Sequence record: OL451225.1
Strand: one strand, 5' to 3'
Length of the DNA stretch: 64,000 nucleotides
DNA from: Escherichia phage P896
Shown here piece by piece: positions 1 to 13,405 of this stretch; position 1 is the stretch's first letter, and each line of letters begins with the position of its first letter. The notes below the pieces were generated by a model. That model was not told the DNA's origin, did not search any database, and worked only from the letters and a program-made list of their open reading frames with translations. A program made the translations under genes and the position numbers.

Positions 1-1151
1 TAACCGAAAAAGGATTTAAGGCATCGGTTTCTGTTGCTGACCGAATCTCCGGGATGTTGTTCAAATATACAATTACGGCAGCAGCCGAAGCAGCCAAGCT
101 TATTGGTGGATTATTGTTGTTGGTATTCGGTATCGATGCGATACGAGTTTACTTCCAATATTTCATGAAGCAATTCGAAAAAGGATGGGCCGAATTTAAT
201 GATAAGTTCAAAGAATGGGGACCGTTGCTCGAAGGACTAATGACTTGGGCTAAGAACGCCCAGGCGATGTTTAGTGAAAAGAATTGGTTGGGATTAGCTG
301 AAGCTATTATCCGTGGGATGGTCAACTTAACGAAGAACATGGCTCAACTTCTTATGCTTGGTATTTCGAAACTGATTTCAGCTATCTTAAGCAAAATCCC
401 TGGGATGGGCGATTTAGCAGATAATGTGGAAGCCTCAGCTTTGATGTCTTATCAGCAAAATACAGGGGCAACTCTGGATGATGAAGACCAAACCAAGATA
501 GCAAAATATCATGACAAACGTTCGGCTGAAGCAATGGAAGCTGCAGAGAAGATGAATAAGAAGTATAAGGATAAACCTGAACTAATTAATCAAGCCGAAA
601 AATATGGTAACCTTACCAAGGAACAAGCTGACCAGCTTCGCGCGGGTGGTATTGACACAAGCTTCAGAGACCTTCCGGAAGAAGAACGTCTGGACTATTT
701 CAAGAAGCGTGACAAAGCACAGGCTGATATTATTCGTTTGACCCAAACTGCGGATAACTTAATGAAGCCAGACGCAACCGATAAAAAGAATGCGATGGAA
801 ATGAGAGCTAACATTGAAAAACAATTAGCTGACCCAGCTATGGCAAAAGGTGGAGCTCCGAAAGACCTGAATATGCGCGCCCTGTTGGAAAAACTTGATA
901 AGTCTCTTGAGAAGTTCAAAGACGAACCGAAAGTTAAACCGCCGGATGTTAAGACTTCTCCGGATGCACAACAAGCTGCGAAGGTAGACGAAGGCATGAA
1001 GGCCAAAGAAAATAAATACAAGGATGCACCGGCTCAGGCACAAATTAACACGGTCAATAATATTCAGAAGACTTCCAGGACGCAATACAATATGCCTCCT
1101 CAAAGTTCAACCCCTGCCCCTGGCATGAGACAGGCCACGAGAATTAACTAA
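1..1151 (+). CDS. 29: Baseplate hub / tail-length determinator, C-terminal part (5' end lies outside window)
   Basis: Reading frame is open to position 1; Lys/Glu-rich coiled-coil-like tail; sits immediately upstream of 48 and 54 as in T4. Confidence 0.55.
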   Translation, partial: TEKGFKASVSVADRISGMLFKYTITAAAEAAKLIGGLLLLVFGIDAIRVYFQYFMKQFEKGWAEFNDKFKEWGPLLEGLMTWAKNAQAMFSEKNWLGLAEAIIRGMVNLTKNMAQLLMLGISKLISAILSKIPGMGDLADNVEASALMSYQQNTGATLDDEDQTKIAKYHDKRSAEAMEAAEKMNKKYKDKPELINQAEKYGNLTKEQADQLRAGGIDTSFRDLPEEERLDYFKKRDKAQADIIRLTQTADNLMKPDATDKKNAMEMRANIEKQLADPAMAKGGAPKDLNMRALLEKLDKSLEKFKDEPKVKPPDVKTSPDAQQAAKVDEGMKAKENKYKDAPAQAQINTVNNIQKTSRTQYNMPPQSSTPAPGMRQATRIN

Positions 1152-1159
1152 GGAATAAC

Positions 1160-2254
1160 ATGAAAGTAAAAGAACTCGATATTGATATTGCGAGTTTATT
1201 TAACGGAGGTTCTAAGACCTCCGCTGGGCAGTCAAAAGCTGCCCAGACTCAAGCTACTATTGTGGCGCAATATCCAGCAGAACGAGCTTCCGGTAATGAT
1301 TCTTCAGATGATATGCGAGTTAATGACCTTTATAAAAATGGTCTGTTATTCACGGCATACAATTTCAGTTCAAGAACATCTCCGGAATTACGCTCAGACA
1401 GGTCAAGCCAATTGACTTCATTAAAGAAAGTTTCCAATGGTGCTTCATTTAACCCGGTTAAAAGTTTAACATCTTTTACTAAATCGAAATTAACCGGCGC
1501 TGGCTCAACAGGTAAAAGTTTTGATTCGAACGCTGTTGCAAATATCCTATTGCCTCGTTCGAAGTCTGATGTAGAATCCGTGTCGCATCGATTCAATGAT
1601 GTTGGTGAGTCTCTTATTACGAAAGGCGGTGGCTCAGCTACTGGCATTCTTAGTAACATCGCATCGACTGCAGTTTTCGGCGCACTCGAATCAGTTACAA
1701 ACGGTGTAATGGCCGACCATGGCGAACAGATTTACACAACGGCAAGAAGCATGTATGCTGGTCCAGATAACCGGACAAAAGTTTACACATGGGAAATGAC
1801 TCCACGTTCGGCCCAGGACTTAATCCAGATAGTGAAGATATATGAGATTTTTAACTATTACTCCTATGGGGAAACCGGTAAAAGTTCGTTTGCTTCCGAG
1901 CTGAAAGAAAAAATCGATACATGGTATAAATCCACCTTCAAAAAAGAAGCAATCGATAACTTTGACGGCAAGTTGCTCGGTGAAGAGATAACAAGCTTCC
2001 TAACGAACGTTCTGGTGGTCTCTAACCCTACTATCTGGTATATCCGCAACTTCGGCGATACAAGCTCGTACGATGGTCGTGGGGAGCTATTTGGGCCGTG
2101 TCAGATTCAGAGCATAAGATTCGATAAATCCCCGGATGGTCATTTCGGTGGATTAGCTATTGCTCCTAACCTGCCATCGACTTTTGTACTTGAAATCACT
2201 TTCCGTGAAATCATTACGCTTAACCGTGGCTCATTATATGCGGAAGGTTTCTAA
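1160..2254 (+). CDS. 48: Baseplate tail-tube cap protein gp48
   Basis: 364 aa, same length as T4 gp48; position between 29 and 54; tight coupling to the next gene (stop/start overlap at 2254). Confidence 0.8.
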   Translation: MKVKELDIDIASLFNGGSKTSAGQSKAAQTQATIVAQYPAERASGNDSSDDMRVNDLYKNGLLFTAYNFSSRTSPELRSDRSSQLTSLKKVSNGASFNPVKSLTSFTKSKLTGAGSTGKSFDSNAVANILLPRSKSDVESVSHRFNDVGESLITKGGGSATGILSNIASTAVFGALESVTNGVMADHGEQIYTTARSMYAGPDNRTKVYTWEMTPRSAQDLIQIVKIYEIFNYYSYGETGKSSFASELKEKIDTWYKSTFKKEAIDNFDGKLLGEEITSFLTNVLVVSNPTIWYIRNFGDTSSYDGRGELFGPCQIQSIRFDKSPDGHFGGLAIAPNLPSTFVLEITFREIITLNRGSLYAEGF

Positions 2255-3195
2255 TGTTTACTTTACAAGAATTTCAAACACAAGCGATTAATATCGACTT
2301 GCAGAGGAATAACCTTTTTAGTGTGGTCTTCGCGACCGCACCTTCCTCTAAATCTCAGAATCTTCTGGACCAGTTTGGTGGCGCATTATTCAGCAACCTT
2401 CCTGTTAACTCAGATTGGTTCGGATTAACACAAGGTGACTTAACTCAAGGGATAACAACTCTTGTTACTGCCGGGACACAAAAGCTTATTCGTAAATCAG
2501 GGATAAGCAAATATCTTATCGGGGCAATGAGTAACCGTGTTGTGCAATCATTATTAGGTGAATTTGAGGTTGGTACTTACCTGCTTGATTTCTTTAATAT
2601 GGCTTATCCAACGGCTGGTCTATTAGTTCACTCTGTTAAGCTTCCGGATAACACATTGAACTACGAAATGGACCTTAACCATAATGCGCCAAATATCAAG
2701 ATAACAGGGAGAGAATATTCTCCGTTGGTATTGAGTTTTAGAATGGATTCAGAGGCGGGGAACTTCAGAGCATTTAACGATTGGGTTAACTCTGTACAGG
2801 ACCCAGTTACCCAGCTAAGGGCTTTGCCTGAAGACGTTGAAGCTGATATTCAGGTTAACCTTCATTCGCGTAATGGGTTACCGCATACGGTTGTTATGTT
2901 AACTGGTTGTGTTCCTGTGAGTGTATCAGCGCCTGAATTGAGCTATGAAGGGGATAATCAGATAGCTACATTTGATGTTACTTTTGCTTATCGTGTTATG
3001 TCAACTGGTGCGGTGGGAAGAACTGCAGCATTAGAATGGTTGGAAGATAAGGTTATTAAAGGTGTATCTGGTATTAGTTCAGATAACAACTTGAACTCAG
3101 AAGTTGCCAAATTGAGTCGCTTGTCTGGTGCTCAATCTGGATTAACAAGTCTATACAATACGTTCACTGGTTCTGGGAGTCAACGTATATTATAA
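2254..3195 (+). CDS. 54: Baseplate tail-tube initiator gp54
   Basis: 313 aa versus about 320 aa in T4; follows 48; ends at a strong terminator. Confidence 0.8.
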   Translation: MFTLQEFQTQAINIDLQRNNLFSVVFATAPSSKSQNLLDQFGGALFSNLPVNSDWFGLTQGDLTQGITTLVTAGTQKLIRKSGISKYLIGAMSNRVVQSLLGEFEVGTYLLDFFNMAYPTAGLLVHSVKLPDNTLNYEMDLNHNAPNIKITGREYSPLVLSFRMDSEAGNFRAFNDWVNSVQDPVTQLRALPEDVEADIQVNLHSRNGLPHTVVMLTGCVPVSVSAPELSYEGDNQIATFDVTFAYRVMSTGAVGRTAALEWLEDKVIKGVSGISSDNNLNSEVAKLSRLSGAQSGLTSLYNTFTGSGSQRIL

Positions 3196-3230
3196 AAAGA
3201 AAGGGACCCGAAGGTCCCTTTTTTATTTGC
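3196..3230. terminator. Bidirectional intrinsic terminator between convergent genes 54 (+) and the alt.-1-like gene (-)
   Basis: GGGACC-CGAA-GGTCCC hairpin (3203-3218) flanked by an A-run upstream and a T-run downstream, so it reads as a terminator on both strands. Confidence 0.7.
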
Positions 3231-3513
3231 GGAATGAAATGAAACCTGCTGCAGTCATGACAACTTCTTTCTTAGCAAAGACTGTAATTGCAATTGGTGC
3301 TTCGGACTCAAGTTGCCCAGTTACTACACCATTAAAAATATTTTCTGTTTGTTCAGAATTTACAAAGTTTTCAACAGGGCGAAGGTCAAACTTCTTATCT
3401 TCGCCAAACACGCGCCGCAGTTCATTACCCACCGCGCTGTCAAACTCTTCTGAAGCCGGGATAACATTCTCAACTACCAGTTCCTGACCATTAAAGCGAA
3501 AAGATGATTTCAT
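3223..3513 (-). CDS. Hypothetical protein (alt.-1-like position)
   Basis: ORF with GAGGAAAA Shine-Dalgarno before the internal ATG at 3513; the track ORF 3223..3546 is probably an N-terminal over-extension. Confidence 0.5.
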   Translation of the reverse strand: MKSSFRFNGQELVVENVIPASEEFDSAVGNELRRVFGEDKKFDLRPVENFVNSEQTENIFNGVVTGQLESEAPIAITVFAKKEVVMTAAGFISFRK

Positions 3514-3576
3514 TTTGTTTTCCTCATGTGCAATTGATATGAACATTGTATCGCACTTCCTTGTGCTTGTAAACCC

Positions 3577-5637
3577 CTACGAAAGGAATTTAGGAGGAAT
3601 AGCTTCCAAATTAATACAACTAGCAAGAATACCAAGACCTTGATTGACTTTCTTCGTTACCCCAGAGGATGCAAACGATGCAAAGTCAACAGATTCTGCT
3701 GGCTCTTCTGTTTCCTCGCCCTGATAAACGACAAGCTCACCAGTTTCCATCAACACATCACCATCATAGATAACTGCATTTTCATCCAGTTGGTCCGTAG
3801 TCTGGATATCAGCTTCCAGCATTTTGACGTTCGCGTTTCCTTGATACGAAGCATCAGTAATTTTGGTAATCTTAACTACAGTCCCACGAGGAAGAATAAC
3901 TTCCTGCTCGGACGGGTTGCTTGACAATTCCCCAGGAACAATTACGTTAATTAAGTCCGCCCCAGAAATTTTCCAACCAACATGCATCATTACGTGGTCG
4001 CGGCGTGCATCCGGCATATCTGGTAAAACAATTTCGTCATCAGCCTGGAAAGATGTCCCATCACGATAGTCCTGATGAACTGCAGCCATAGCAACGTTCG
4101 CCACCCAGCCACCAAAGATAATCGGTTTAAACGACGTTGATACATAGTTCCTGAAATAAAATAATTTAGATTTCTTAATTTTATCAAATGTAGGAACGTT
4201 TAAATATTGACCACGCCAAAGAGTTGTATTAGGCGGCAACTTATGTCCAATTTCAAAGGCCGAATCCAATTCCTTAATTGTTTCGACAACTCTGTCTAGA
4301 TTTAGGAATTCAGCTTCTTCTTCATAATATTTGCCCATCAAATAATTATTAATATCGGCATAGTTTGCTCCACAATAATCTGCAATTGCTTCTCGCTGGC
4401 CATAATGGAAACGGTTGTCAGTATACCCTGCTGTGAAATTAAGAGTATTTTCTGATGCTTCTTCGGCAAAGTCTTTAACTGCAACACGAATGGCGCTTGT
4501 GTATTCTTTTTCCCAGAGCGAGGCTGCATAAGTGGCTGCATCCAGGTTAGGAGGAGCATCATTCATTTTTCTTTCGATAAATGCGGCTTTGCGAAGGTTA
4601 AGAATCTCTGCGCATGATTCGGCAAAAATCTGCATCTGCTTCATACTACCAACCGGAGCACGTTTAAGTTCACGATGCATACGGTTAAAAATTGGGTCAG
4701 AGTCTTCAACACGAATTTCTTCTTTCCAAACACCATTTGCTCGCATAGCCTCATCTGCTGCACGCATACGAGCCATAGTATTCGTTTCAGAAGGTCGAAC
4801 AAAAATTTCCAGTTCTTCATAATCATCGATAAGTTCTGCCGTAGCCGGTCGACTAAACTTAGCAGCTTCTGCATCAATTTCGTCCCAACCGTCTGGTACG
4901 GAATCACTTGGAGCGTACTGGGCTTGTGCAATAGCTCGGCGACTGATTTTAGTTTTCTGGGCAACAGCAGCATCGGTCTTTTTGTTTGCTGCGTCAATCA
5001 GAACTTCGGCTGCGATTTCTTGTTTGGAGACTTGTGCGCCTGTATCTTTATTAGTGAATACATCGCCGACTTTAGTTTCAACTTTTTGATATTTCTCAGG
5101 GACCGGTGGCATACCATCAACCGAAAGCAGGTCAACACCCTTTTTGTACATAATTACATAAGCGTTCTTTTTACCGAGGCCGGAAGCATTCGGAAGAACA
5201 TGATAACGCCCGCTGGTTTTCATTTGAATCAGTCGATTCATAATACGAATAACAGCTTGGTCTTGTCCTTTCATCTTTTTGGATGGGAAACGGAACAAGA
5301 CTACATCAGGTTTGCCTAGTTTAATGCTTTCCCAGACTGTAACAAAAATCAGGTTAATCGCATCAAGAGGTTTTTCACCTAGACCACCCTTCAGAGGAAT
5401 AGCATGGCCATGTGAAGTCCCGGATAACAGGAATACCTCGGCAATTGCATCGCCACGTTTATATTGTTTAACTGTTTCTTTGCCCGTGAATTGCATCAAA
5501 CGGGCCATAAGAGAATTGGTCCCAGGAACACCGAATTGCCAAACCTGCGGGACCTTGTATTTTGGATTCATATTAATGACAGGATAACCGAAGGCTTCGA
5601 TATATTTGTCAAAGAGTTCATTTAATTGTTCAGACAT
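3577..5637 (-). CDS. alt: Alt-family mono-ADP-ribosyltransferase (head-packaged), copy 1
   Basis: 686 aa (T4 Alt is 682 aa); R/STS/E-x-E motifs (WRGQ..., YVSTSF, EQEVILPRGT); conserved N-terminal region shared with the adjacent paralog. Confidence 0.8.
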   Translation of the reverse strand: MSEQLNELFDKYIEAFGYPVINMNPKYKVPQVWQFGVPGTNSLMARLMQFTGKETVKQYKRGDAIAEVFLLSGTSHGHAIPLKGGLGEKPLDAINLIFVTVWESIKLGKPDVVLFRFPSKKMKGQDQAVIRIMNRLIQMKTSGRYHVLPNASGLGKKNAYVIMYKKGVDLLSVDGMPPVPEKYQKVETKVGDVFTNKDTGAQVSKQEIAAEVLIDAANKKTDAAVAQKTKISRRAIAQAQYAPSDSVPDGWDEIDAEAAKFSRPATAELIDDYEELEIFVRPSETNTMARMRAADEAMRANGVWKEEIRVEDSDPIFNRMHRELKRAPVGSMKQMQIFAESCAEILNLRKAAFIERKMNDAPPNLDAATYAASLWEKEYTSAIRVAVKDFAEEASENTLNFTAGYTDNRFHYGQREAIADYCGANYADINNYLMGKYYEEEAEFLNLDRVVETIKELDSAFEIGHKLPPNTTLWRGQYLNVPTFDKIKKSKLFYFRNYVSTSFKPIIFGGWVANVAMAAVHQDYRDGTSFQADDEIVLPDMPDARRDHVMMHVGWKISGADLINVIVPGELSSNPSEQEVILPRGTVVKITKITDASYQGNANVKMLEADIQTTDQLDENAVIYDGDVLMETGELVVYQGEETEEPAESVDFASFASSGVTKKVNQGLGILASCINLEAIPPKFLS

Positions 5638-5646
5638 TTTTAACCC

Positions 5647-7521
5647 TTAATTGAGAAGGTGTACAAGTTTTTCCATAGACAAATCATAAGAGATTCTGTC
5701 ATATTTTTTCAAAAGCGAATTTGATTCGTCTATCTGGTCATTTTCTAAGATAGAGCATTCAACGAGAATGTATTTACCCATCGAACCCATCATGCCAGCT
5801 GTAGCACCATAGACTTTATCAATCTTAAGCATTGTTCCACGTGGAAGAATAACTTCGGTTTCAACGGACCAGTTTGCCAGGTCACCAGGAATAACTACCT
5901 TGATATTTTCTGCACCTTTGATAATCATACCAATCTTGATTGTAGGTTTCGCCGAACCAGTTGCACTTTTAATAGTTGCATCGATTGCCCCATCATCGAT
6001 ATCACTCGATAATGCATTTGGGTCAAGGTTCGCAGCGGTGTGGCCCATACGACCGAAAATATTTGGCGCCAGAGATGTACTCGCAAACATAGGAAGATAC
6101 ATCGTTTTATTTTTGATGGAATTAATTGCCATATCGGTTGGCATGACTTGAGCACGGTAGATGATAGTTCCTTTTGGAAGCTTAACACCGTTTTCAAATA
6201 CTTTATCCATATCGGAAATCATTTTGATTTCGCTTTCTTTTGCGTCAGCTTTCCCTAGCAGGAAATTATTGATTGCAGTATATTTTCCGCGAGTATATGC
6301 CTTAATTGCTTCGGCCTGGTCTTCAGTTATTTCAGGGTTGTCGGAGATATGAAATAATGGTTGGATGGCCTTGGTGTAAATTTCATCTGCGATAATACGA
6401 ATAGCTTCTTTAGTCTTATCTTCGCGCGCCCAGGTCCCCACAATGGAGTCGTCAAGCAACATATCAGCAACTCTGCGCAATGTATCAACAGGATTCTTTG
6501 AGGCCCGCAGGACGTTCGAAAACTCACTTATTTTGTGTTCCATGCCAACTTCTTTAAGAGCATTAAACACATCCATGGCTACACGAGTTTTTGTCTTATC
6601 TTCACCAACACCACCTTGTGCAACTAAATCAAAATAGTCTGCATACTCATCACCCGCACGGTCGATTACTTTTATTGAAGCTTTAGCTATCTGACTTTCT
6701 CTGGCATCATCTGCTGAATGCACTGCGCTACTGGTCGAGAGTTTTGTATAAATCTCTTTGTGCTCTGGTGAGAATTTAGCAAGGCCAGTTGGTTCGTTCC
6801 CCGAATACAATGCGTTAATAGCTGCGCGTTTAGAAAACTTGGTTTTAACAACAACTGCCTGGTCTGTACGTTTTTCTTCAACCTTTGCAATAGAGGCCGC
6901 AATAGCTTCATTCTTGGTAACAGTTTCGCCGGTGGCTTTGTCTACATAAACATCACCGACTTTCGATTCCACTTTTGTGTACAATTCGGTATTGATGCCA
7001 GGAATTCCGGCGATAGATTCAATTGGTTTGGATTTACGATAAATCAATACGTAAGTATGTTTACCCGTGTACTGATACATATCATCCAGAACTTTGAACT
7101 GACCGCCGGCACGGGCCATAATAAGCCGAGCAAGAACACGCTGAATAGTTCGTTCTTGTCCCTTCATTTTGCGGGTCGGGAAGCGGAACATAATTGCATC
7201 CATTTTCATCAGTTTTACTTGTTCGTAAACTACATCAAAAATGGATTTAATTGCTCCAATCGGGTTATCACCAAGACCACCTTTAAGAATAGCTGGAGTA
7301 CCGTTTGAATTTAATGACATCAAAATAACGTGTGCATACTTATCGCCAGTTTTGACCTGTTTAATAGCATCGCCTTCGGATGCGTAAGACACCATACGAG
7401 CAATAAGATTATCATTCCCCGGGACCTGGATATTCCAAATCTGTGGAACTTTTGACTTTGAAAGGTTAATGGCCGGGATATTAGATTCCCCTTCAAAAAC
7501 CTCTGACAATAATTCGGTCAT
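5647..7521 (-). CDS. Alt-family mono-ADP-ribosyltransferase paralog, copy 2
   Basis: 624 aa; N-terminal region homologous to copy 1 (KVPQ.W..VPG, LKGGLG, FRFP..KMKGQ, KVE.KVGDV); R/STS/E motifs (YRAQ, FASTSL, ETEVILPRGT). Confidence 0.8.
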   Translation of the reverse strand: MTELLSEVFEGESNIPAINLSKSKVPQIWNIQVPGNDNLIARMVSYASEGDAIKQVKTGDKYAHVILMSLNSNGTPAILKGGLGDNPIGAIKSIFDVVYEQVKLMKMDAIMFRFPTRKMKGQERTIQRVLARLIMARAGGQFKVLDDMYQYTGKHTYVLIYRKSKPIESIAGIPGINTELYTKVESKVGDVYVDKATGETVTKNEAIAASIAKVEEKRTDQAVVVKTKFSKRAAINALYSGNEPTGLAKFSPEHKEIYTKLSTSSAVHSADDARESQIAKASIKVIDRAGDEYADYFDLVAQGGVGEDKTKTRVAMDVFNALKEVGMEHKISEFSNVLRASKNPVDTLRRVADMLLDDSIVGTWAREDKTKEAIRIIADEIYTKAIQPLFHISDNPEITEDQAEAIKAYTRGKYTAINNFLLGKADAKESEIKMISDMDKVFENGVKLPKGTIIYRAQVMPTDMAINSIKNKTMYLPMFASTSLAPNIFGRMGHTAANLDPNALSSDIDDGAIDATIKSATGSAKPTIKIGMIIKGAENIKVVIPGDLANWSVETEVILPRGTMLKIDKVYGATAGMMGSMGKYILVECSILENDQIDESNSLLKKYDRISYDLSMEKLVHLLN

Positions 7522-7546
7522 ATTGTTTTCCTTATAAAATATGATG

Positions 7547-7554
7547 TATTTATA
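7547..7554 (-). promoter_or_regulatory. T4-type late promoter (TATAAATA) upstream of the alt paralogs
   Basis: Exact TATAAATA on the minus strand about 26 nt upstream of the ATG at 7521. Confidence 0.55.
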
Positions 7555-7580
7555 CGAAAAAAGGACCGAAGCCCTTTTGT
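7555..7580 (-). terminator. Intrinsic terminator after DNA ligase
   Basis: Minus-strand RNA AAAAGGGC-UUCG-GUCCUUUU (one G.U pair) followed by a U-run; abuts the ligase stop codon. Confidence 0.55.
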
Positions 7581-9121
7581 TATTTTAATCCAGTCTTTGA
7601 CCAGTCGCCAAATACATCTTCGAATGTGTCTGCATGGTCTTTATCGAAACGGAACCCTTTGATAATCGGCAGGAACAATGCAACCGTATTATCTTTACGA
7701 GTCTCGGAAGTCAACCAACCATTACATTCACAGTCGGCAATCATTCCAACCAATTCGCCTTTACGGGCTTTAACCATCAAGGCTTCACGGTCCATTTCAT
7801 GACGCTCCTCAATCGGAATAGTAACCCATTTTTTGGTTTTCTTATCTTTAACTTGAGTTGTGTCTTTAAAACCAGAACCACAGTTATTTGTAATCTTACC
7901 ACAAGAAGAACGAAGCACAACACCACCAATCTTATTCGGGTCTTTATCGTGCTCGTAATATCCAATGATTTCCATTGCGATGTCAATTACTTCTTTGAAC
8001 TTGTACAAGTTCTTTGAGCGCTTGTTTTCCCAAATCGATGCCATGTTCTTAAGGATAATACCTTCAAGACCTTCATCCACATATTTCTTATAGATAACCT
8101 TCGCTTCATCGAGATTGTTAACAACATGGTTTTCAATCAGAATCATGCGGTCAAAACCATGCAGCACCACGTTATCTGCAATCATCTTTTCCAGAACAGC
8201 AAAACGCACATCGTATTTTAACGGATTGAGTATCTTAACATCAGAATAGACTTCAATCAATGGAACATAATCCCAAACCTGGAATTTCATGCAAGAAGCT
8301 TCTGCTGCAGAAATAGTTCCTTTCAATGATTTGTTTGCCAGACCATTTGAAAAGGTTCTTGATTCCGCGAATTCTGCGAATTCTTTTGCCTTACTAAGCT
8401 CAGGCATATCGTCAAAAAGGAAGCTCAAACCATCATTCTGGGGAGCTATTTTCTGTTCATGATATACTAACTCGCCGTCAATCAAAACGCCCTCAGGATG
8501 TCTCTCACGCGCTTCACGGGTAGCTTCAATCAATTCCTTTTTAAGGAGGTCAAGCTTGAGGTATTCGTTGCCAGCTCGGGATAACAATCGAACATCATCC
8601 AACTCATCGCCACGAACTTCTGCAAAACACCGAGCGCCGTCGGCTTTCAATTGTGCAAAGGCCGGGAACTTAATGTTCTTGGCAATACCGGCTTCATCAT
8701 AGGAAGAAGCGAGCATCTGCGGTTGTTCAGGAATTAAACCTTTCCAAACCTTATTTGCAATTGATACGGATGCCCCGCATTCCAGGTCACGCATCATAAC
8801 ACGCCGCAGGACTTCAACATCTGCTTTTTTACCATCAGCAATATAGCCAGATAATTCCTCGATTGCAGCATTACCTGTTAATTTACGAGAGGCTAATGTG
8901 AATTCAATAAAGTCAAGCATATCATCGATATTCAGCATACCAAAGCTTTGAGTCGTTGTCCCAGGTTTTGGCCATTTCTTAATATAGAACTGGATGCCTT
9001 TGGAATATGTCAAACGATACACACGTTTGAGGGTTTCATTGTCAGAATACGATTCCAGAATAGCTTGTTTCTCTTTAGTAGAATCGGTTGCAGCAATTTC
9101 ATTTAAAATATCTAAAATCAT
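7580..9121 (-). CDS. 30: ATP-dependent DNA ligase gp30
   Basis: 513 aa; N-terminus and body closely resemble T4 DNA ligase (ILNEIA...KRVYRLTYS, KADGARC adenylation motif, ...FEDVFGD). Confidence 0.95.
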   Translation of the reverse strand: MILDILNEIAATDSTKEKQAILESYSDNETLKRVYRLTYSKGIQFYIKKWPKPGTTTQSFGMLNIDDMLDFIEFTLASRKLTGNAAIEELSGYIADGKKADVEVLRRVMMRDLECGASVSIANKVWKGLIPEQPQMLASSYDEAGIAKNIKFPAFAQLKADGARCFAEVRGDELDDVRLLSRAGNEYLKLDLLKKELIEATREARERHPEGVLIDGELVYHEQKIAPQNDGLSFLFDDMPELSKAKEFAEFAESRTFSNGLANKSLKGTISAAEASCMKFQVWDYVPLIEVYSDVKILNPLKYDVRFAVLEKMIADNVVLHGFDRMILIENHVVNNLDEAKVIYKKYVDEGLEGIILKNMASIWENKRSKNLYKFKEVIDIAMEIIGYYEHDKDPNKIGGVVLRSSCGKITNNCGSGFKDTTQVKDKKTKKWVTIPIEERHEMDREALMVKARKGELVGMIADCECNGWLTSETRKDNTVALFLPIIKGFRFDKDHADTFEDVFGDWSKTGLK

Positions 9122-9396
9122 TTAATATCTCTTCTGGTCATAAAGATTCTATTATAAGCTACTTCATCTTGAAGCTCATTTAAAGTCTTTTGATATGTAT
9201 TAATCCAACGTCTACCACGAGAGGTTGTTACAAAATACTCGGAGATGTAAATAAATCCTTGTTCAACACATTCCATGAATATTTTTTCATATCTAGCTTG
9301 GTTGTATAAAGGCTTTGCTCGTAAGAACTGTGTCACATTCCCGTAATCATGGGTAGAACATCTTCCGTCTGAAATATCATGAACGACAAACATCAA
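9118..9396 (-). CDS. Hypothetical protein (30.1-like position)
   Basis: 92-aa ORF translationally coupled to its neighbours. Confidence 0.5.
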   Translation of the reverse strand: MMFVVHDISDGRCSTHDYGNVTQFLRAKPLYNQARYEKIFMECVEQGFIYISEYFVTTSRGRRWINTYQKTLNELQDEVAYNRIFMTRRDIK

Positions 9397-10217
9397 TTAC
9401 CCCCTTGGCCACCGGTCGGTTGGTTGTACCAATATTCAATGCCAGTACCTACGCGTGGACCATATTGATATGGATATGCTGGATTATAACCAGGAGTCCA
9501 TGGTTGACCTGGTTGCCAGCCTTGTTGCATTTGTTGTTGAAGACGGCGAGTTTCACGAAACAGCTCTTCCAGTTTACGGAGTTCATCAGGGGTGAATTCT
9601 GGTTTGACTGGTTCATCTTTGTGTTTCAGTTTAAGCTGCCCAGCTACATCGTCCCAATTAAAAACTTTGGAAGCTGTTTTAGGAATAGCATCACGTTCAC
9701 CACGAGCCATCCAATAAACCGGAATCTCAAGGATTTCACTCGCATGGTCGCAATGGTGTGCAAGGTCATCAATATAACAAACGACATTATATTTGGTCTT
9801 CGCCTTCTGGAATAACTCTTCTTTAGAAGCTGTATGGCCGCACATCATCACTTCTTTAAATGCACCAGGGAACAAAGCATTCAGGTTGAATTGACGATTC
9901 AGACGGGCGTCAATGGAATCACCCAGAGCCGTAACAGCCACAAAATCATATTGCTCTTTGAGGTTATTAATAACCCTTAACGCATCTGCGTAAGGAGACA
10001 AATAGCGAATAAAATCTGAACAGTTATATTTCTCAATCAACTGTGCTCCCAACTCTTCATCACAATTGAACAGTTTACCAGGGGTCACAAATTTTTCATC
10101 CTGAATCATCTTAAGGATATGTTCCAGGGGTAAATTATATTTTTGGGCGAAATAAGGCAAGCCAGACTGCCATGACAAACATACGCCATCAATATCTGTT
10201 AAAATAACGGGTTTCAT
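9393..10217 (-). CDS. HAD-like (DxDG) putative nucleotidase/phosphatase with Q/P/G/Y-rich C-terminal tail
   Basis: N-terminal ILTDIDGV motif typical of HAD phosphatases and 5'(3')-deoxyribonucleotidases; C-terminal about 60 aa are low complexity (QQQMQQGWQPGQPWTPGYNPAYPYQYGP...GGQGGN). Confidence 0.55.
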   Translation of the reverse strand: MKPVILTDIDGVCLSWQSGLPYFAQKYNLPLEHILKMIQDEKFVTPGKLFNCDEELGAQLIEKYNCSDFIRYLSPYADALRVINNLKEQYDFVAVTALGDSIDARLNRQFNLNALFPGAFKEVMMCGHTASKEELFQKAKTKYNVVCYIDDLAHHCDHASEILEIPVYWMARGERDAIPKTASKVFNWDDVAGQLKLKHKDEPVKPEFTPDELRKLEELFRETRRLQQQMQQGWQPGQPWTPGYNPAYPYQYGPRVGTGIEYWYNQPTGGQGGN

Positions 10218-10699
10218 AATGCATCTCTCAATTGGTTAAGTATGTCAATAAATTCTTGTTCAGTCAATATTGTATCATGAACAGTAAGGTGACTCGCCAT
10301 CGAATGCTTTAAAACTTTGCCCTTTGTAGCTTGTAATGCGTCGCGGAATCCTTTGTTTTGGAGCGCTGCTTCAAAATAAGCATTTGTATACAACTCTTTC
10401 CATGATGTAGAGTATCTTGAAAAGGGAATTCCAAGCCAGAAAAGCGTCCCACGGTCCGCAGCTCTCGCATAAGCTCTTCCACTTTGCTGGGCGGCCAGGC
10501 CGGACATCCCAAATATACGTTTTTGTTGTTCATGATTTCTCACCTTACACCCTTGCAGGAAGCCTTCAAGACCTCCAAACTGGATGCCCTCCATAACAAA
10601 AGGCCATTTAGCAAAGTTACTTAATGCACATGATGGCCATGGGAAATTGCTTCTGATTTCTAACTCAGACATCTTTGACACTGATAATCTTGGTTGCAT
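10214..10699 (-). CDS. Hypothetical protein (30.3-like position)
   Basis: 161-aa ORF in the conserved gene-30 downstream block. Confidence 0.5.
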   Translation of the reverse strand: MQPRLSVSKMSELEIRSNFPWPSCALSNFAKWPFVMEGIQFGGLEGFLQGCKVRNHEQQKRIFGMSGLAAQQSGRAYARAADRGTLFWLGIPFSRYSTSWKELYTNAYFEAALQNKGFRDALQATKGKVLKHSMASHLTVHDTILTEQEFIDILNQLRDAL

Positions 10700-10877
10700 A
10701 CCACATACCGTGGTCCGGTAATCTGGATTTAATTGACCGCCCGCGATATGTTTTTCGCATTACAACAGTCTTAATAGCATCTTCATCACAAGCATATGGA
10801 GGTGATAAATCAATAACACGATAAGTAACTTCAACCATTTCCAAGCCAAACAGCTTTTTAAATAATTTCTTAATCAT
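10665..10877 (-). CDS. Small hypothetical protein, tandem paralog A
   Basis: 70 aa; clearly homologous to the adjacent 70-aa ORF (shared EMVEVTYRV.D.SP ... SIK.RLP..G.W ... IISVKD). Confidence 0.5.
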   Translation of the reverse strand: MIKKLFKKLFGLEMVEVTYRVIDLSPPYACDEDAIKTVVMRKTYRGRSIKSRLPDHGMWYATKIISVKDV

Positions 10878-10886
10878 GAAGGTTCC

Positions 10887-11099
10887 TTAAATATCTTTGA
10901 CGCTGATAATATATACATCAGCCCAATGACCATAACCAGGTAGACGGTCTTTAATAGATAATCCACCGTCAGATTTCAGCATTTTAATTGTTTTAGTATA
11001 TGGTTCAATATTTCGGGCCCATGGACTCACGTCAGTTACGCGATAAGTAACTTCAACCATTTCTGTTCCCAAAATTTTCTGAATCAGTTTCTTAAACAT
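10887..11099 (-). CDS. Small hypothetical protein, tandem paralog B
   Basis: 70 aa; paralog of 10665..10877. Confidence 0.5.
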   Translation of the reverse strand: MFKKLIQKILGTEMVEVTYRVTDVSPWARNIEPYTKTIKMLKSDGGLSIKDRLPGYGHWADVYIISVKDI

Positions 11100-11100
11100 A

Positions 11101-11295
11101 TTATCCTCGCCTTAAACATTTGATTACAGACAGTTCACCGTCCATGCGAACGTCTTCTGTTCCGTCAACCCACAGGACTAGATACGCTTCTTTAATTACA
11201 ATACCACCGAATTTAAAAGCAGGCAAGACCTTAGAAATCATTCCAGGAATACCTACGCCTTTTAACTGGACAGTTTGCGATAGAAATAGTTTCAT
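11101..11295 (-). CDS. Hypothetical protein
   Basis: 64-aa ORF, coupled to flanking genes. Confidence 0.4.
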   Translation of the reverse strand: MKLFLSQTVQLKGVGIPGMISKVLPAFKFGGIVIKEAYLVLWVDGTEDVRMDGELSVIKCLRRG

Positions 11296-11612
11296 TAGAA
11301 CCTCATCTGGAAACCGTGTGATTTAACATTACCGCCATTAATATCAGACGAATTGACTTCACGTGCTGCAATTGGGTCAATATCAATGTCGCGGCTAAGC
11401 TTGGTGATTGCCAGCGTATCACGTCCATTAACAGTCCTGAATTCAACTGGGCAAACTATATCCACATAGTTTTTAATGGATTCTTTAGTTGGTTCACACC
11501 CAGCAGGAACATTAGGGCCTTTTTTAGAGAAAACAACTTCACAGAAATTTTTGCGTGTATCAAAGTAAGTAGTCATAAACATAGTATTTTCCTCAAGGGG
11601 CTTTCGCCCCAT
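11295..11612 (-). CDS. Hypothetical protein
   Basis: 105-aa ORF. Confidence 0.5.
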   Translation of the reverse strand: MGRKPLEENTMFMTTYFDTRKNFCEVVFSKKGPNVPAGCEPTKESIKNYVDIVCPVEFRTVNGRDTLAITKLSRDIDIDPIAAREVNSSDINGGNVKSHGFQMRF

Positions 11613-11618
11613 TTAAGA

Positions 11619-11984
11619 TTAGATATCAAATTCATTAAGAACTACATCAAAGATTGCTTCCAGGTGTTCAGGTTTTGCTTTGTTACCCAGGATATGACGA
11701 ATCCAAGTTTTAACCAACAGCTTGCGATTAACACCATTCCAACAAGGATGAGTACCTAAATCACGCTCGCGGAAATCATCATCTAAAGCAATTTTAAAGG
11801 TTGAACCAGTCATAGTGATTGAAAGAGTGATACCATTTTCAAATCGCATATAAACGTAGTTAGGAGTCATATACTGTTCAATTTCGCACACTGAACCATT
11901 TTTATGTTTCCACAGGCAAATAACTTCAGAAGAACCTGGGATGCAGTTAGAAACATATTTGCGTTCAAAGTTGATGTAGTTCAT
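11619..11984 (-). CDS. Hypothetical protein
   Basis: 121-aa ORF preceded by the conserved leader module ...TGGAGAATAAAATG. Confidence 0.5.
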   Translation of the reverse strand: MNYINFERKYVSNCIPGSSEVICLWKHKNGSVCEIEQYMTPNYVYMRFENGITLSITMTGSTFKIALDDDFRERDLGTHPCWNGVNRKLLVKTWIRHILGNKAKPEHLEAIFDVVLNEFDI

Positions 11985-12011
11985 TTTATTCTCCAGTTGT
12001 TTTCATTTGTT

Positions 12012-12052
12012 GGTACAGGTCTATAATATCATAACCTGTACCAAAGTAAACT
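12012..12052 (-). promoter_or_regulatory. Early-type promoter with an inverted repeat flanking the -10 region
   Basis: Minus strand GTTTAC (-35-like) then GGTACAGG-N15-CCTGTACC palindrome enclosing an AT-rich -10-like segment. Confidence 0.4.
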
Positions 12053-12055
12053 GTT

Positions 12056-12424
12056 TTATGCGACTTTAATCCAATTATCTAAATTTAATTCACCCTTAGC
12101 TTTCATTTTTTCAATCAAATCATCAGCAGTAGTGCGACCATTTTGATACCATGTAACATCTTCAGAATAACCAGTTTCTTCATCTTCATAGGTCTTACAG
12201 CGAATCTTACCAAGAATCAAAGTTTTCAGTTCGTAGGTATCACCAGTAAAAAAGTTTGTTACCATAATTTTCCAGGAGAAGTCATCAGAAGGACCTTCTG
12301 GAGTCATGCAAGAAACGAATTCAAATTGTTCTTTATACAAGTGCCATTGCATTTCTTTAGTTTCAATGGCTTTGTAACCGTCGTGGTCTTTACCTTTGAT
12401 GTATGAGTTAAGATTGATTTTCAT
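12056..12424 (-). CDS. Hypothetical protein
   Basis: 122-aa ORF with TGGAGAATAAAATG leader. Confidence 0.5.
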   Translation of the reverse strand: MKINLNSYIKGKDHDGYKAIETKEMQWHLYKEQFEFVSCMTPEGPSDDFSWKIMVTNFFTGDTYELKTLILGKIRCKTYEDEETGYSEDVTWYQNGRTTADDLIEKMKAKGELNLDNWIKVA

Positions 12425-12465
12425 TTTATTCTCCAGTGTTTTATTGTGTAACTCAGTATGGAATC

Positions 12466-12497
12466 ATTATGCACTGGACCAACCCTGTTGTAAACCC
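12466..12497 (-). promoter_or_regulatory. T4 early-type promoter (GTTTAC -35, CATAAT -10)
   Basis: Minus strand GTTTACAA-N-CATAATGATTCCATACTGAG; member of a repeated promoter-leader cassette family in this window. Confidence 0.5.
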
Positions 12498-12504
12498 CTT
12501 TATG

Positions 12505-12536
12505 GAAAATAAAAAAGGGACTCCGAAGAGTCCCTG
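12505..12536 (-). terminator. Intrinsic terminator
   Basis: Minus-strand GGGACUC-UUCG-GAGUCCC hairpin followed by UUUUUUAUUUU. Confidence 0.6.
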
Positions 12537-12539
12537 AAC

Positions 12540-12701
12540 TTATGCTTTCGGCTTACCAAAGCAAGCTGCATCGGCACGCAATACCGCACGAGCACGAGCC
12601 TGAAGTTTATCAGTTACCTGATTGATTCGCTTGTTGGACGCACGCTTGTAACCAGCGCGTTTGGAGGAGCCATCAACAACTTTAACTTCTTTCTTAGCCA
12701 T
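12540..12701 (-). CDS. Small basic protein (53 aa), hypothetical
   Basis: ORF below the track's 60-aa cutoff, MAKKEVKVVDGSSKRAGYKRASNKRINQ...; Lys/Arg-rich; followed directly by a terminator. Confidence 0.4.
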   Translation of the reverse strand: MAKKEVKVVDGSSKRAGYKRASNKRINQVTDKLQARARAVLRADAACFGKPKA

Positions 12702-12996
12702 ATTAAATTCTCTTTAAAATAGAATGCAGGACTTATTGACATTGCCTGCGCAAGCCCTCGAAGGGAACATTAGGTTTCGGATATTTAACGACAGGATAAC
12801 CATAAACCTCGTCATCATACCAACCACGACTTAGACAGATAACCTTTTTCTGACGCGTGATAGTACAAAATACATTCAAGAGGTACACCACAAAATTATC
12901 GGGGTCTAAAACTATAATGATTCGCAAATCATTAATCAGATAATTCGGTGGCTCCTCGATTTTCTAGCCGCACTAAGGTAGCGAATCACCTACAGC

Positions 12997-13251
12997 TTAC
13001 TTCAGGGTTACGACAAAATGGCGAACAGCTTTACGCGCAGCAGATGCCAGCGGCTTAGCAAATTTCAGTTCATCTTTTGCTTCGAGCACTGCGCGAAGGT
13101 CGGTTTGAATCGGGTTAAGATGTTTGAAATACTGCAGAATTTCCAGTGCTTCGGCTTCAACATCAATAGATGCGCCGTAGTTTTCGTGACCGTTATTCCA
13201 TGCAGTGCGTTGCAGTTCGAGAGCGTGTTGTAATTGTTTGTTTAAAGACAT
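12997..13251 (-). CDS. rIII: rIII-like lysis-inhibition accessory protein (start probably the internal ATG)
   Basis: About 84 aa from the internal Met (MSLNKQ...WNNGHENYGASIDVEAEALEILQYF...), matching T4 rIII in size and in position between the gene-30 block and gene 31. Confidence 0.45.
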   Translation of the reverse strand: MSLNKQLQHALELQRTAWNNGHENYGASIDVEAEALEILQYFKHLNPIQTDLRAVLEAKDELKFAKPLASAARKAVRHFVVTLK

Positions 13252-13405
13252 TTTAGAAGCCTCAATATGAGGTGAATATTTGGTGGACACGTTCTTCTGA
13301 ATTTCACTTCCTTTCGGCAAGTCTCTCAGTTGTAGTCCACCGTTTAGGATTAGCTAACCCAATACACCAGCAAAGCTCTGTATGACATCAACCAATCCAT
13401 ATTAT

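Follow-up and report, generated by a model that had tools for sequence, protein, structure and literature searches.

Alt is a textbook phage enzyme that is injected with the DNA for host reprogramming, and the genome of Escherichia phage P896 raises the question of what two adjacent alt-like genes do at a place where T4 keeps a single intact copy. The analysis covered a 64,000-nucleotide stretch of this genome (OL451225.1; hereafter the window), whose features are collected in Table 1.

Two alt genes in the T4 alt position

The ORF listing gave exactly the adjacent minus-strand ORFs of 686 and 624 aa that had been reported in a first-pass annotation of this DNA, here called altB and altA, respectively. 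Both lie between gene 30 (ligase) and alt.-3/gene 54, which is the same place as T4 alt, and the order gene 30 - alt - alt.-3 - 54 - 48 is syntenic with T4. Among T4-type phages, P896 is close to Shigella phage SP18, and the tandem pair is already known: SP18 (NC_014595) carries alta (YP_003934835) and altb (YP_003934834) in the same order and with the same spacing, annotated as Alt-like RNA polymerase ADP-ribosyltransferases. SP18 and P896 are 98.2% identical at the nucleotide level over this 6.1-kb region, with just point differences, and their altA proteins are 99.8% identical. altB corresponds to SP18 'altb' and to 'alt' of phage VR20, and alt duplication in T4-like phages has been discussed previously (PMC1524935, PMC4177764). 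The present analysis adds the boundaries of an altA cassette and its apparent recent exchange, the retention of both protease sites despite a short altA propeptide, domain mosaicism as judged from sequence comparison, and a weak resemblance of the N-terminal domain to the GNAT fold.

The resemblance to T4 Alt (682 aa) extends to the slot between genes 30 and 54, the hairpin and late-promoter leader, the domain order, the R-S-E residues and the gp21 motifs, at an overall identity of 33% for altA and about 35% for altB. The earlier statement that T4 has a single alt gene holds for intact copies, but a second, decayed copy persists downstream of alt, where alt.-1 and alt.-2 represent its residues 1-63 and 64-118 (PMC1524935).

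Table 1. Features of the alt locus of P896, with positions given in the window
Feature	Position	Strand	Remarks
Hairpin, 8-bp stem, UUCG loop	7559-7578	-	dG -8.5 kcal/mol, z -3.3 (RNA fold)
Late promoter, T4-type TATAAATA	7547-7554	-	Exact match, 25 nt upstream of altA ATG
altA cassette	5638-7527	-	6-nt leader, altA ORF and 9-nt spacer before altB ATG
altA	5647-7521	-	624-aa Alt-family ADP-ribosyltransferase, extra copy
altA N-terminal propeptide MTELLSE	7501-7521	-	Predicted gp21 cleavage after LSE-7
altA conserved N-terminal domain, residues 8-240	6802-7500	-	Pfam PF26846 Tevenvirinae_ADPRT
altA ART catalytic domain, residues 397-599	5725-6333	-	Pfam stretch 397-589
altA catalytic codons	R456 6154-6156; S481-T-S483 6073-6081; E554-T-E556 5854-5862	-	
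altA short C-terminal propeptide, 25 aa	5650-5724	-	After predicted gp21 site IDE-599
altB	3577-5637	-	686-aa Alt-family ADP-ribosyltransferase; PF03496, PHROG 802
altB ART domain, about residues 410-619	3781-4410	-	
altB catalytic codons	R475 4213-4215; S500-T-S502 4132-4140; E577-Q-E579 3901-3909	-	
altB C-terminal propeptide, 67 aa, acidic, pI 4.05	3580-3780	-	After predicted gp21 site LDE-619
alt.-3 (DUF5498)	3223-3513	-	PF17602 E 1.2e-33, residues 12-107 matched
Strong terminator hairpin	3200-3221	-	Terminator scan; dG -14.9 kcal/mol, z -3.8

Catalytic domains and predicted prohead-protease sites

Both ORFs encode Alt-family ADP-ribosyltransferases with intact catalytic residues. Each matches PF03496 (ADPrib_exo_Tox; E 2.3e-19 for altB and 2.5e-15 for altA) and PHROG 802, 'Alt-like RNA polymerase ADP-ribosyltransferase' (E 1e-199 to 1e-225); altB is matched end to end (residues 1-685, E 9.5e-225) and altA over residues 1-603, its match ending at profile position 618/674. 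The two proteins are 32% identical to each other over 643 columns (BLASTP, E 2e-86). Identity is highest over the N-terminal ~245 columns (43%) and falls to 32% across the ART domain, 21% for the tail and 17% for the middle region, in agreement with the previously described conserved N-terminal region and diverged C-terminal half. As the middle and ART regions are so diverged, it is plausible from the sequences that altA and altB have different targets.

The R / S-T-S / E-x-E motifs ascribed to both proteins in the first-pass annotation are all in place, occupy aligned columns in the two copies and are near-invariant in an alignment of 66 family members (65/66 members have the R, and all 66 have the first Ser and both Glu), where neither copy has lost the catalytic Glu or Arg. 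R456 of altA aligned with the VIP2 catalytic Arg region, and AF2 models of the two proteins (pLDDT 79-81; 80.7 for altB) have predicted C3/VIP2-like folds. The altB model matched Vis/C3/VIP2 with a Foldseek E of 2.7e-7, and the best PDB matches were all R-S-E ARTs, C3, VIP2, Vis, iota/CDTa, Certhrax and SpvB among them. Sequence identity to the C3 exoenzyme, VIP2, iota-toxin Ia and Vis toxins is 14-21%, and, unlike these bacterial R-S-E toxins, the P896 Alts have STS and ExE separated by a large, variable insertion and carry a phage-specific N-terminal domain. The mode of delivery also differs, being head injection for phage Alts and secretion or a binary-toxin pore for the bacterial toxins.

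Given that some ARTs of the R-S-E clade modify DNA or RNA, that T4 ModB RNAylates proteins (PMC8120803; PMC9503650) and that the ART domains are just 32-39% identical to that of T4 Alt, we considered whether one or both enzymes might modify a non-arginine substrate such as nucleic acids, or attach NAD-capped RNA like ModB. This is very unlikely, as both copies carry the E-x-E motif typical of arginine-specific ARTs (PMC8120803), their nearest structural matches are protein-targeting toxins and T4 Alt is itself an arginine ART. Altogether, altA and altB are very probably paralogous Alt-type mono-ADP-ribosyltransferases specific for arginine, encoded in one late-transcribed operon.

Each protein opens with a predicted 7-residue propeptide that ends in L-x-E. 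A conserved N-terminal domain of ~230 aa, peculiar to T4-like phages, comes next, and a helical region of variable sequence links it to the C3/VIP2-type ART domain, behind which lie the second (L/I)-x-E site and a C-terminal propeptide. In T4 Alt, prohead-protease sites have been mapped at ITE-6 and LTE-619, and removal of the C-terminal propeptide was mapped by mass spectrometry (PMC5694885; see also PMC9026906). A candidate N-terminal site, for which the first-pass annotation had suggested a search, was found in both proteins: LSE-7 of altA and LNE-7 of altB align with ITE-6, while IDE-599 and LDE-619, respectively, align with LTE-619. The presence of (L/I)-x-E motifs at both positions mapped in T4 supports packaging and processing of both proteins. 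Conservation of these sites across the 66 family members is high, both at the N-terminus (E7 in 66/66, L/I at P3 in 64/66) and at the C-terminus (Glu in the E599 column in 65/66, L/I at P3 in 63/66). Cleavage at both would convert the 68.6 kDa altA precursor into a mature protein of 64.9 kDa (residues 8-599) and the 76.6 kDa altB precursor into one of 68.7 kDa (residues 8-619).

T4 Alt is found in the virion head at ~40 copies and is injected with the DNA (PMC9958956, PMC9026906), and its targets include RNA polymerase alpha (R265), MazF (R84) and EF-Tu, among others (PMC8120803). By homology with T4 Alt, both P896 proteins would be assembled into the core of the prohead and would lose a piece at each end to the gp21 protease. 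The processed Alts would stay in the head, enter the host along with the phage DNA and, with NAD+ as substrate, ADP-ribosylate host proteins on arginines at the first moments of infection. We infer by this analogy that altA and altB are transcribed late, packaged, cleaved and injected, and likewise their enzymatic activity and targets; RNA polymerase alpha is an assumed target solely on the basis of the T4 homologue (33-39% identity). Two or three diverged, injected Alts would probably act on more host proteins, or on different ones, and could thereby influence host range as well as resistance to defences such as toxin-antitoxin systems.

The C-terminal tails set the two copies apart. The altB tail is 54% identical to that of T4 Alt and is homologous to the 63-aa propeptide that T4 Alt loses on processing; it includes the long family pattern YDGD..LMETGEL..F.SF..LASCI...P.KF, which altA does not. 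In contrast to T4 Alt, most of this propeptide is absent from altA: ~40 conserved residues are missing (25 aa instead of ~65), the altA tail is unrelated, and tails of 54-75 aa are found in 63/66 family members, with just two others short. Because of these missing residues, the packaging or regulation of altA may differ from that of the family. Taken further, altA could be expressed late and act in the producing cell, or be packaged or activated in some other way, leaving altB as the only classical Alt. The short tail and the early end of the altA match to PHROG 802 fit such a scenario, and targeting, tethering or control are candidate roles of the two Alt propeptides (PMC5694885). Nevertheless, it is improbable, since altA has an intact and typical N-terminal propeptide and N-terminal domain, the N-terminal propeptide of T4 internal proteins is regarded as the signal that targets them to the capsid (PMC7411985), and retention of the I-D-E site would be pointless unless it were exposed to gp21 in the prohead.

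The altA cassette and family mosaicism

altA has no counterpart in most Gapriverviruses, such as VR20, whereas altB is common to all of them. A blastn comparison showed that VR20 is collinear with positions 3000-5637 and 7528-9121, with just 6 nt between these two blocks, and four records covered at least 80% of a 6.2-kb query while many 68%-covered records lacked the altA cassette. Synonymous divergence of altA is near zero (dS 0.007 to SP18 and 0 to phage 212), whereas altB and the ligase gene on either side reach 0.07-0.11, and a tract of low divergence spans ~5000-7750. The clean indel relative to VR20 and this near-zero dS between diverged flanks indicate that altA is a clean one-gene cassette that appears to have been recently exchanged among Gapriverviruses by homologous recombination. 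altB itself is closer to VR20 (dS 0.045) than to SP18 (0.086), which makes the P896 backbone a mosaic unlike that of SP18.

One copy could also be redundant or decaying and be heading for loss without a function of its own, like T4 alt.-1/alt.-2. The second T4 copy survives just as fragments, altA is lacking from most Gapriverviruses, and a third alt copy in phage 04086 is seemingly disrupted or truncated. We give this explanation scant credence for P896, where both ORFs are full length with every catalytic and processing residue kept, and where dN/dS is well below 1, reflecting purifying selection (0.07-0.18 for altB; 0.095 for altA, from 3 synonymous and 1 nonsynonymous differences). Moreover, altA is found in four other phage genomes with 98.9-99.8% conservation, a WG01 relative at 63% identity retains all motifs, and the 32% identity between altA and altB excludes a recent, still-redundant duplication.

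This WG01 relative, ORF201, is the closest to altA outside the SP18 group, and resembles it in its first, ligase-proximal position, short tail and full set of motifs. Dhakaviruses carry full-length alt genes head to tail behind one leader, two in JS98 (alta/altb) and three in WG01 (ORF201-200-199), in effector combinations other than that of P896, which pairs a WG01-201-type gene with the Gaprivervirus-specific altB type. altB is the resident Gaprivervirus copy, and altA an added cassette most closely related to the first gene of the three-gene array in WG01-like Dhakaviruses. In P0021, a gene within a three-gene alt array has an altB-type middle, ART domain and tail (82%, 76% and 61% identity) behind a Dhakavirus-type N-terminal domain, and sequence comparison thus points to a mosaic family in which a conserved N-terminal domain is combined with swappable effector halves.

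Tentatively, the P0021 mosaic, its three-gene array and the near-zero altA dS with diverged flanks could be read as signs that the alt locus is a swappable array of injected effectors. N-terminal domains and interchangeable middle-plus-ART modules would be joined near residue 240, whole genes would be gained, lost and swapped by phages that co-infect a cell, and altA would be a recently spread cassette adding a second, distinct set of host targets in SP18-type phages. This is a possibility that we hold to be less than probable; if true, a host defence toxin would be a possible altA target, comparable to the neutralisation of MazF by T4 Alt.

The N-terminal domain, for which PF26846 is precomputed along with PF03496 on a protein identical to altA, has 28 invariant columns across 15 diverse members, altA and altB included. 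The altB domain, of a Gaprivervirus-specific type, is the outlier, with 38-46% identity to all others. An invariant loop (G82-L83-G84..P87) precedes a helix at residues 87-105, and structural comparison revealed a weak resemblance to the GNAT fold. A search of PDB sequences with the N-domain profile returned no GNAT at E<=10, Pfam acetyltransferase families gave no matches to the 15 members at E<=10, and the loop departs from acetyl-CoA motif A (R/Q-x-x-G-x-G/A) in having Leu at the first motif position. That this domain might be a GNAT-like module with its own function is a model-based addition, weaker than the proposal of a swappable effector array.

Promoter, terminators and probable transcription unit

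The exact late promoter that had been placed ahead of the pair, TATAAATA at 7547-7554, was found on the minus strand, with an AAGGA Shine-Dalgarno sequence between it and the altA ATG. By itself this octamer is weak evidence: the window contains 10 copies where 4.3 would be expected (~2-fold), and 3/100 shuffles reached that number. What counts is where it lies, with the post-ligase hairpin and U-run immediately before it and the altA ATG 25 nt further downstream, and it is the sole exact copy on either strand of positions 1-13400. The 7559-7578 hairpin, with its U-run at 7553-7558, lies just past the gene 30 stop and is likely a terminator of early/middle transcription coming from gene 30. 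An equivalent hairpin is found upstream of alt in T4, VR20 and WG01, the complete arrangement of hairpin, TATAAATA, RBS and ATG is also seen in T4 and VR20, and the terminator upstream of alt is kept in 5/6 T4-like genomes (PMC1524935).

Downstream, the 3200-3221 hairpin closes the altA-altB-alt.-3 unit, which is convergent with gene 54. Promoter and terminator scans within the unit detected no further exact late promoter or terminator before this hairpin, so altA, altB and alt.-3 are probably carried on one late transcript. Transcription would most likely run from the 7547-7554 promoter through altA, altB and then alt.-3, and stop at the 3200-3221 hairpin. altB has an AAGGG RBS within the 9-nt spacer and no promoter of its own, but weaker, non-consensus promoters inside altA, where there is a sigma-70-like match at 5712-5683, could drive it separately.

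The start of alt.-3 is probably the ATG at 3513, giving a T4-like protein of 96 aa, rather than that at 3546; a GAGG sequence lies 9 nt 5' of this second ATG, and the 96-aa form is the one annotated in phage 212. alt.-3 also has its own candidate sigma-70/early-type promoter at 3573-3545 (TTTACA-17-TACAAT).

Tandem alt genes and their known relatives

The window belongs to the genome of a T4-type phage. Over its entire length, a 6.2-kb query around the tandem alt genes matched Shigella phage SP18 (genus Gaprivervirus) at 98.2% identity; for Escherichia phages 212 and PSD2001 the figure was 97–98%. The two ORFs reported in the first-pass annotation, altA and altB, were reproduced exactly by an ORF listing, and their gene surroundings are the same as those of alt in T4. 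The encoded proteins are 32% identical (E 2e-86), and both match Pfam PF03496 (ADPrib_exo_Tox) and PHROG 802 ('Alt-like RNA polymerase ADP-ribosyltransferase'). Identity falls from 43% over the N-terminal ~245 columns to 17% in the middle region, with 32% for the catalytic domain and 21% for the tail, which bears out the earlier description of a common N-terminal region with diverged C-terminal halves.

Features of the alt region and of the T4 alt remnant
Feature	Coordinates	Strand	Remarks
Hairpin	3200-3221		strong; closes the alt unit; dG -14.9
alt.-3 (DUF5498)	3223-3546	-	as listed ORF; downstream of altB
altB	3577-5637	-	686 aa
altA	5647-7521	-	624 aa
Gene 30 (DNA ligase)	7580-9121		upstream of altA
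Gene 54, then gene 48		opposite strand	beyond alt.-3
Gene 30.1 region ORF	9118-9396		
gp30.2 homologue	9393-10217	-	274 aa
Small paralogue 1	10665-10877	-	70 aa
Small paralogue 2	10887-11099	-	70 aa
T4 alt.-1 and alt.-2	5556-5941 of L004 (T4 locus)		

Both proteins were aligned with T4 Alt, three copies from WG01, two from JS98 and the Alt of VR20, a Gaprivervirus lacking altA. The R / S-T-S / E-x-E motifs previously read in each ORF are present in both and fall in invariant columns of this alignment: R456, S481–S483 (Ser-Thr-Ser) and E554/E556 (Glu-x-Glu) in altA, and R475, S500–S502 (Ser-Thr-Ser) and E577/E579 (Glu-x-Glu) in altB. In the family alignment, these catalytic residues are retained in 65–66 of 66 sequences. 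A sequence search of the PDB returned a marginal VIP2 match for altA (E 0.0027), none for altB and no Alt structure. The observation of an ADP-ribosyltransferase pair is confirmed and its interpretation supported, and it is plausible that altA and altB differ in function.

The SP18 record names these very genes 'alta' and 'altb'. JS98 also carries alta and altb, while WG01 and one metagenomic Dhakavirus-like contig each have three Alt-like genes in tandem, and a tblastn search with altA hit 1817 places in 1221 phage records. A full-length alt duplication has been described in phage 44RR, along with the paralogy of T4 alt.-1 and alt.-2 to alt (Nolan et al. 2006, PMC1524935), and alt duplications are known in Ac42, JS98 and Bp7 (Jin et al. 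2014, PMC4177764). No open-access paper discussing the SP18 pair was found; it is on record through its GenBank annotation, plus general statements on alt duplication (PMC1524935, PMC4177764). The tandem Alt pair is thus not new, being already annotated and of an already described kind of tandem paralogy. The assertion that T4 holds a single alt gene is only approximately right: T4 Alt.-1 (61 aa) is 58% identical to residues 2–63 of annotated T4 Alt and Alt.-2 (67 aa) is 62% identical to residues 64–118. T4 thus retains, directly downstream of alt, what is left of a second tandem copy.

Probable late transcription and predicted prohead protease sites

The exact late-promoter match noted at 7547–7554 ahead of the pair was confirmed. 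The octamer TATAAATA lies at 7554–7547(-), 25 nt ahead of the altA ATG; between the two is an AAGGA ribosome-binding site. It occurs 10 times in the window versus 4.3 expected (~2-fold), a number reached in 3 of 100 shuffles, and it is convincing because of its context rather than this count. An 8-bp UUCG hairpin and U-run follow the ligase stop with the octamer directly next, the same order of hairpin, octamer, ribosome-binding site and ATG is found ahead of alt in T4 and VR20, and a terminator upstream of alt is described as conserved in T4-like genomes (PMC1524935).

The stretch from 7521 down to 3223 contains neither another exact late promoter nor anything resembling a terminator. The altB start lies 9 nt past the altA stop, behind AAGGG. 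Together with the hairpin at the end of the unit, this arrangement argues for a late transcript that likely comprises altA, then altB, then alt.-3. A separate transcription unit for altB was rejected, as 3577–7521(-) contains neither an exact octamer nor a terminator-like site and the spacer is only 9 nt; weak non-consensus promoters may nevertheless be present.

T4 Alt is a core component, present at about 40 copies per head and injected with the DNA (PMC9958956, PMC9026906), and mass spectrometry has placed the cuts made in it by the prohead protease gp21 at ITE-6 and LTE-619, with the loss of 6 and 63 residues (PMC5694885). A candidate N-terminal protease site, which the first-pass annotation had suggested looking for, was found in both proteins, where LSE-7 (altA) and LNE-7 (altB) align with ITE-6. 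At the C-terminus, IDE-599 (altA) and LDE-619 (altB) likewise occupy exactly the columns of the T4 cleavage site, all four being (L/I)-x-E motifs. The P1 Glu is present in 66/66 homologues at the N-terminal site and 65/66 at the C-terminal site, and the P3 Leu/Ile in 64/66 and 63/66, respectively. The mature proteins are predicted to be 64.9 kDa (altA) and 68.7 kDa (altB). One real difference between the two is the length of the C-terminal propeptide: that of altB is long, acidic and family-typical (67 aa, 54% identity to that of T4), whereas the 25-aa tail of altA is unrelated to it, and only two other members of the family set have short tails.

The altA cassette and mosaicism of the Alt family

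Compared with VR20 and with most other Gapriverviruses, the window stays collinear as far as the altB ATG (5637) and resumes collinearity at 7528. What they lack is precisely the altA ORF with 6 nt of leader before it and the 9-nt spacer after it, and altA is a clean cassette, found at ≥95% identity in the collection only in SP18, 212, PSD2001 and DCP80. It looks recently exchanged: dS for altA is 0.007 versus SP18 and 0 versus phage 212, compared with 0.07–0.11 for the flanking altB and ligase genes, and the low-divergence tract spans about 5000 to 7750. The altB of the window is nearer to that of VR20, which has no altA, than to that of SP18. A recent in-place duplication was rejected, given the 32% identity of the copies and an altA N-domain (the conserved Alt N-terminal domain) that is nearer to those of Dhakavirus Alt proteins (63–72% identity) than to that of altB (43%). 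Purifying selection acts on both genes (dN/dS 0.07–0.18, that for altA coming from only four differences); with the motifs also intact, decay to a pseudogene was rejected.

The Alt family as a whole is mosaic, with mean pairwise identities of 63% in the N-domain, 24% in the middle region and 47% in the catalytic domain. The N-domain of altA shares 60–72% identity with its nearest counterparts in the family, against 43% with that of altB. P0021, an Alt protein from a three-gene Dhakavirus-like array, has a Dhakavirus-type N-domain only 40% identical to that of altB, yet beyond it matches altB at 82% (middle), 76% (catalytic domain) and 61% (tail). This different N-domain joined to an altB-type remainder points to recombination near residue 240 and indicates module swapping. 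Dhakavirus-type genomes (L007, 4270–10530; L005, 6001–12113) carry three tandem Alt genes in differing combinations of effector types.

The strand and helix order of the N-domain resembles the GNAT β2–β4, α3, β5, α4 core, with an invariant G-L-G..P loop ahead of a long helix. Sequence-level tests for this likeness were negative, and it stands as an unconfirmed resemblance. A profile search with the N-domain identified 72 clusters among 1.84 billion representatives, nearly all of Alt length, with no clear case of alternative cargo. Its few members of unusual length carried no Pfam domain besides the ADP-ribosyltransferase, or showed degenerate motifs of this type by eye. Two rare, distant proteins with an Alt N-domain, P0175 (1142 aa) and P0178 (541 aa), have a long and a shorter C-terminal region, respectively, neither with a Pfam match; these may be either another kind of cargo or highly degenerate ADP-ribosyltransferases.

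Neighbouring features

The alt.-3 ORF is listed at 107 aa, but the start that corresponds to T4 is its second ATG (3513), which gives 96 aa and has a GAGG 9 nt ahead of it. A candidate promoter of the T4 early type (GTTTACA-17-TACAAT, 3573–3545) overlaps the first ATG. In T4, mutants with a C-terminal extension of Alt.-3 evade the CmdTAC defence system (PMC11618068).

In the gene 30.1 region, positions 9000–9500 are ~30–39% divergent from SP18 and 212 between flanks that are 97–99% identical, making this a replaced segment with sharp bounds and an instance of the mosaic backbone. Two adjacent 70-aa ORFs in the gene 30.x region are paralogues (54% identical, E 9e-23) and constitute another small tandem duplication, with equivalent pairs annotated in WG01 and phage 04086. 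The gp30.2 homologue has a low-complexity end rich in Q, P, G and Y (QQMQQGWQPGQPWTPGYNPAYPYQYGP...GGQGGN), and relatives differ in how long gene 30.2 is annotated to be: 825 nt in both SP18 and VR20, 849 nt in phage 212 and 639 nt in WG01.
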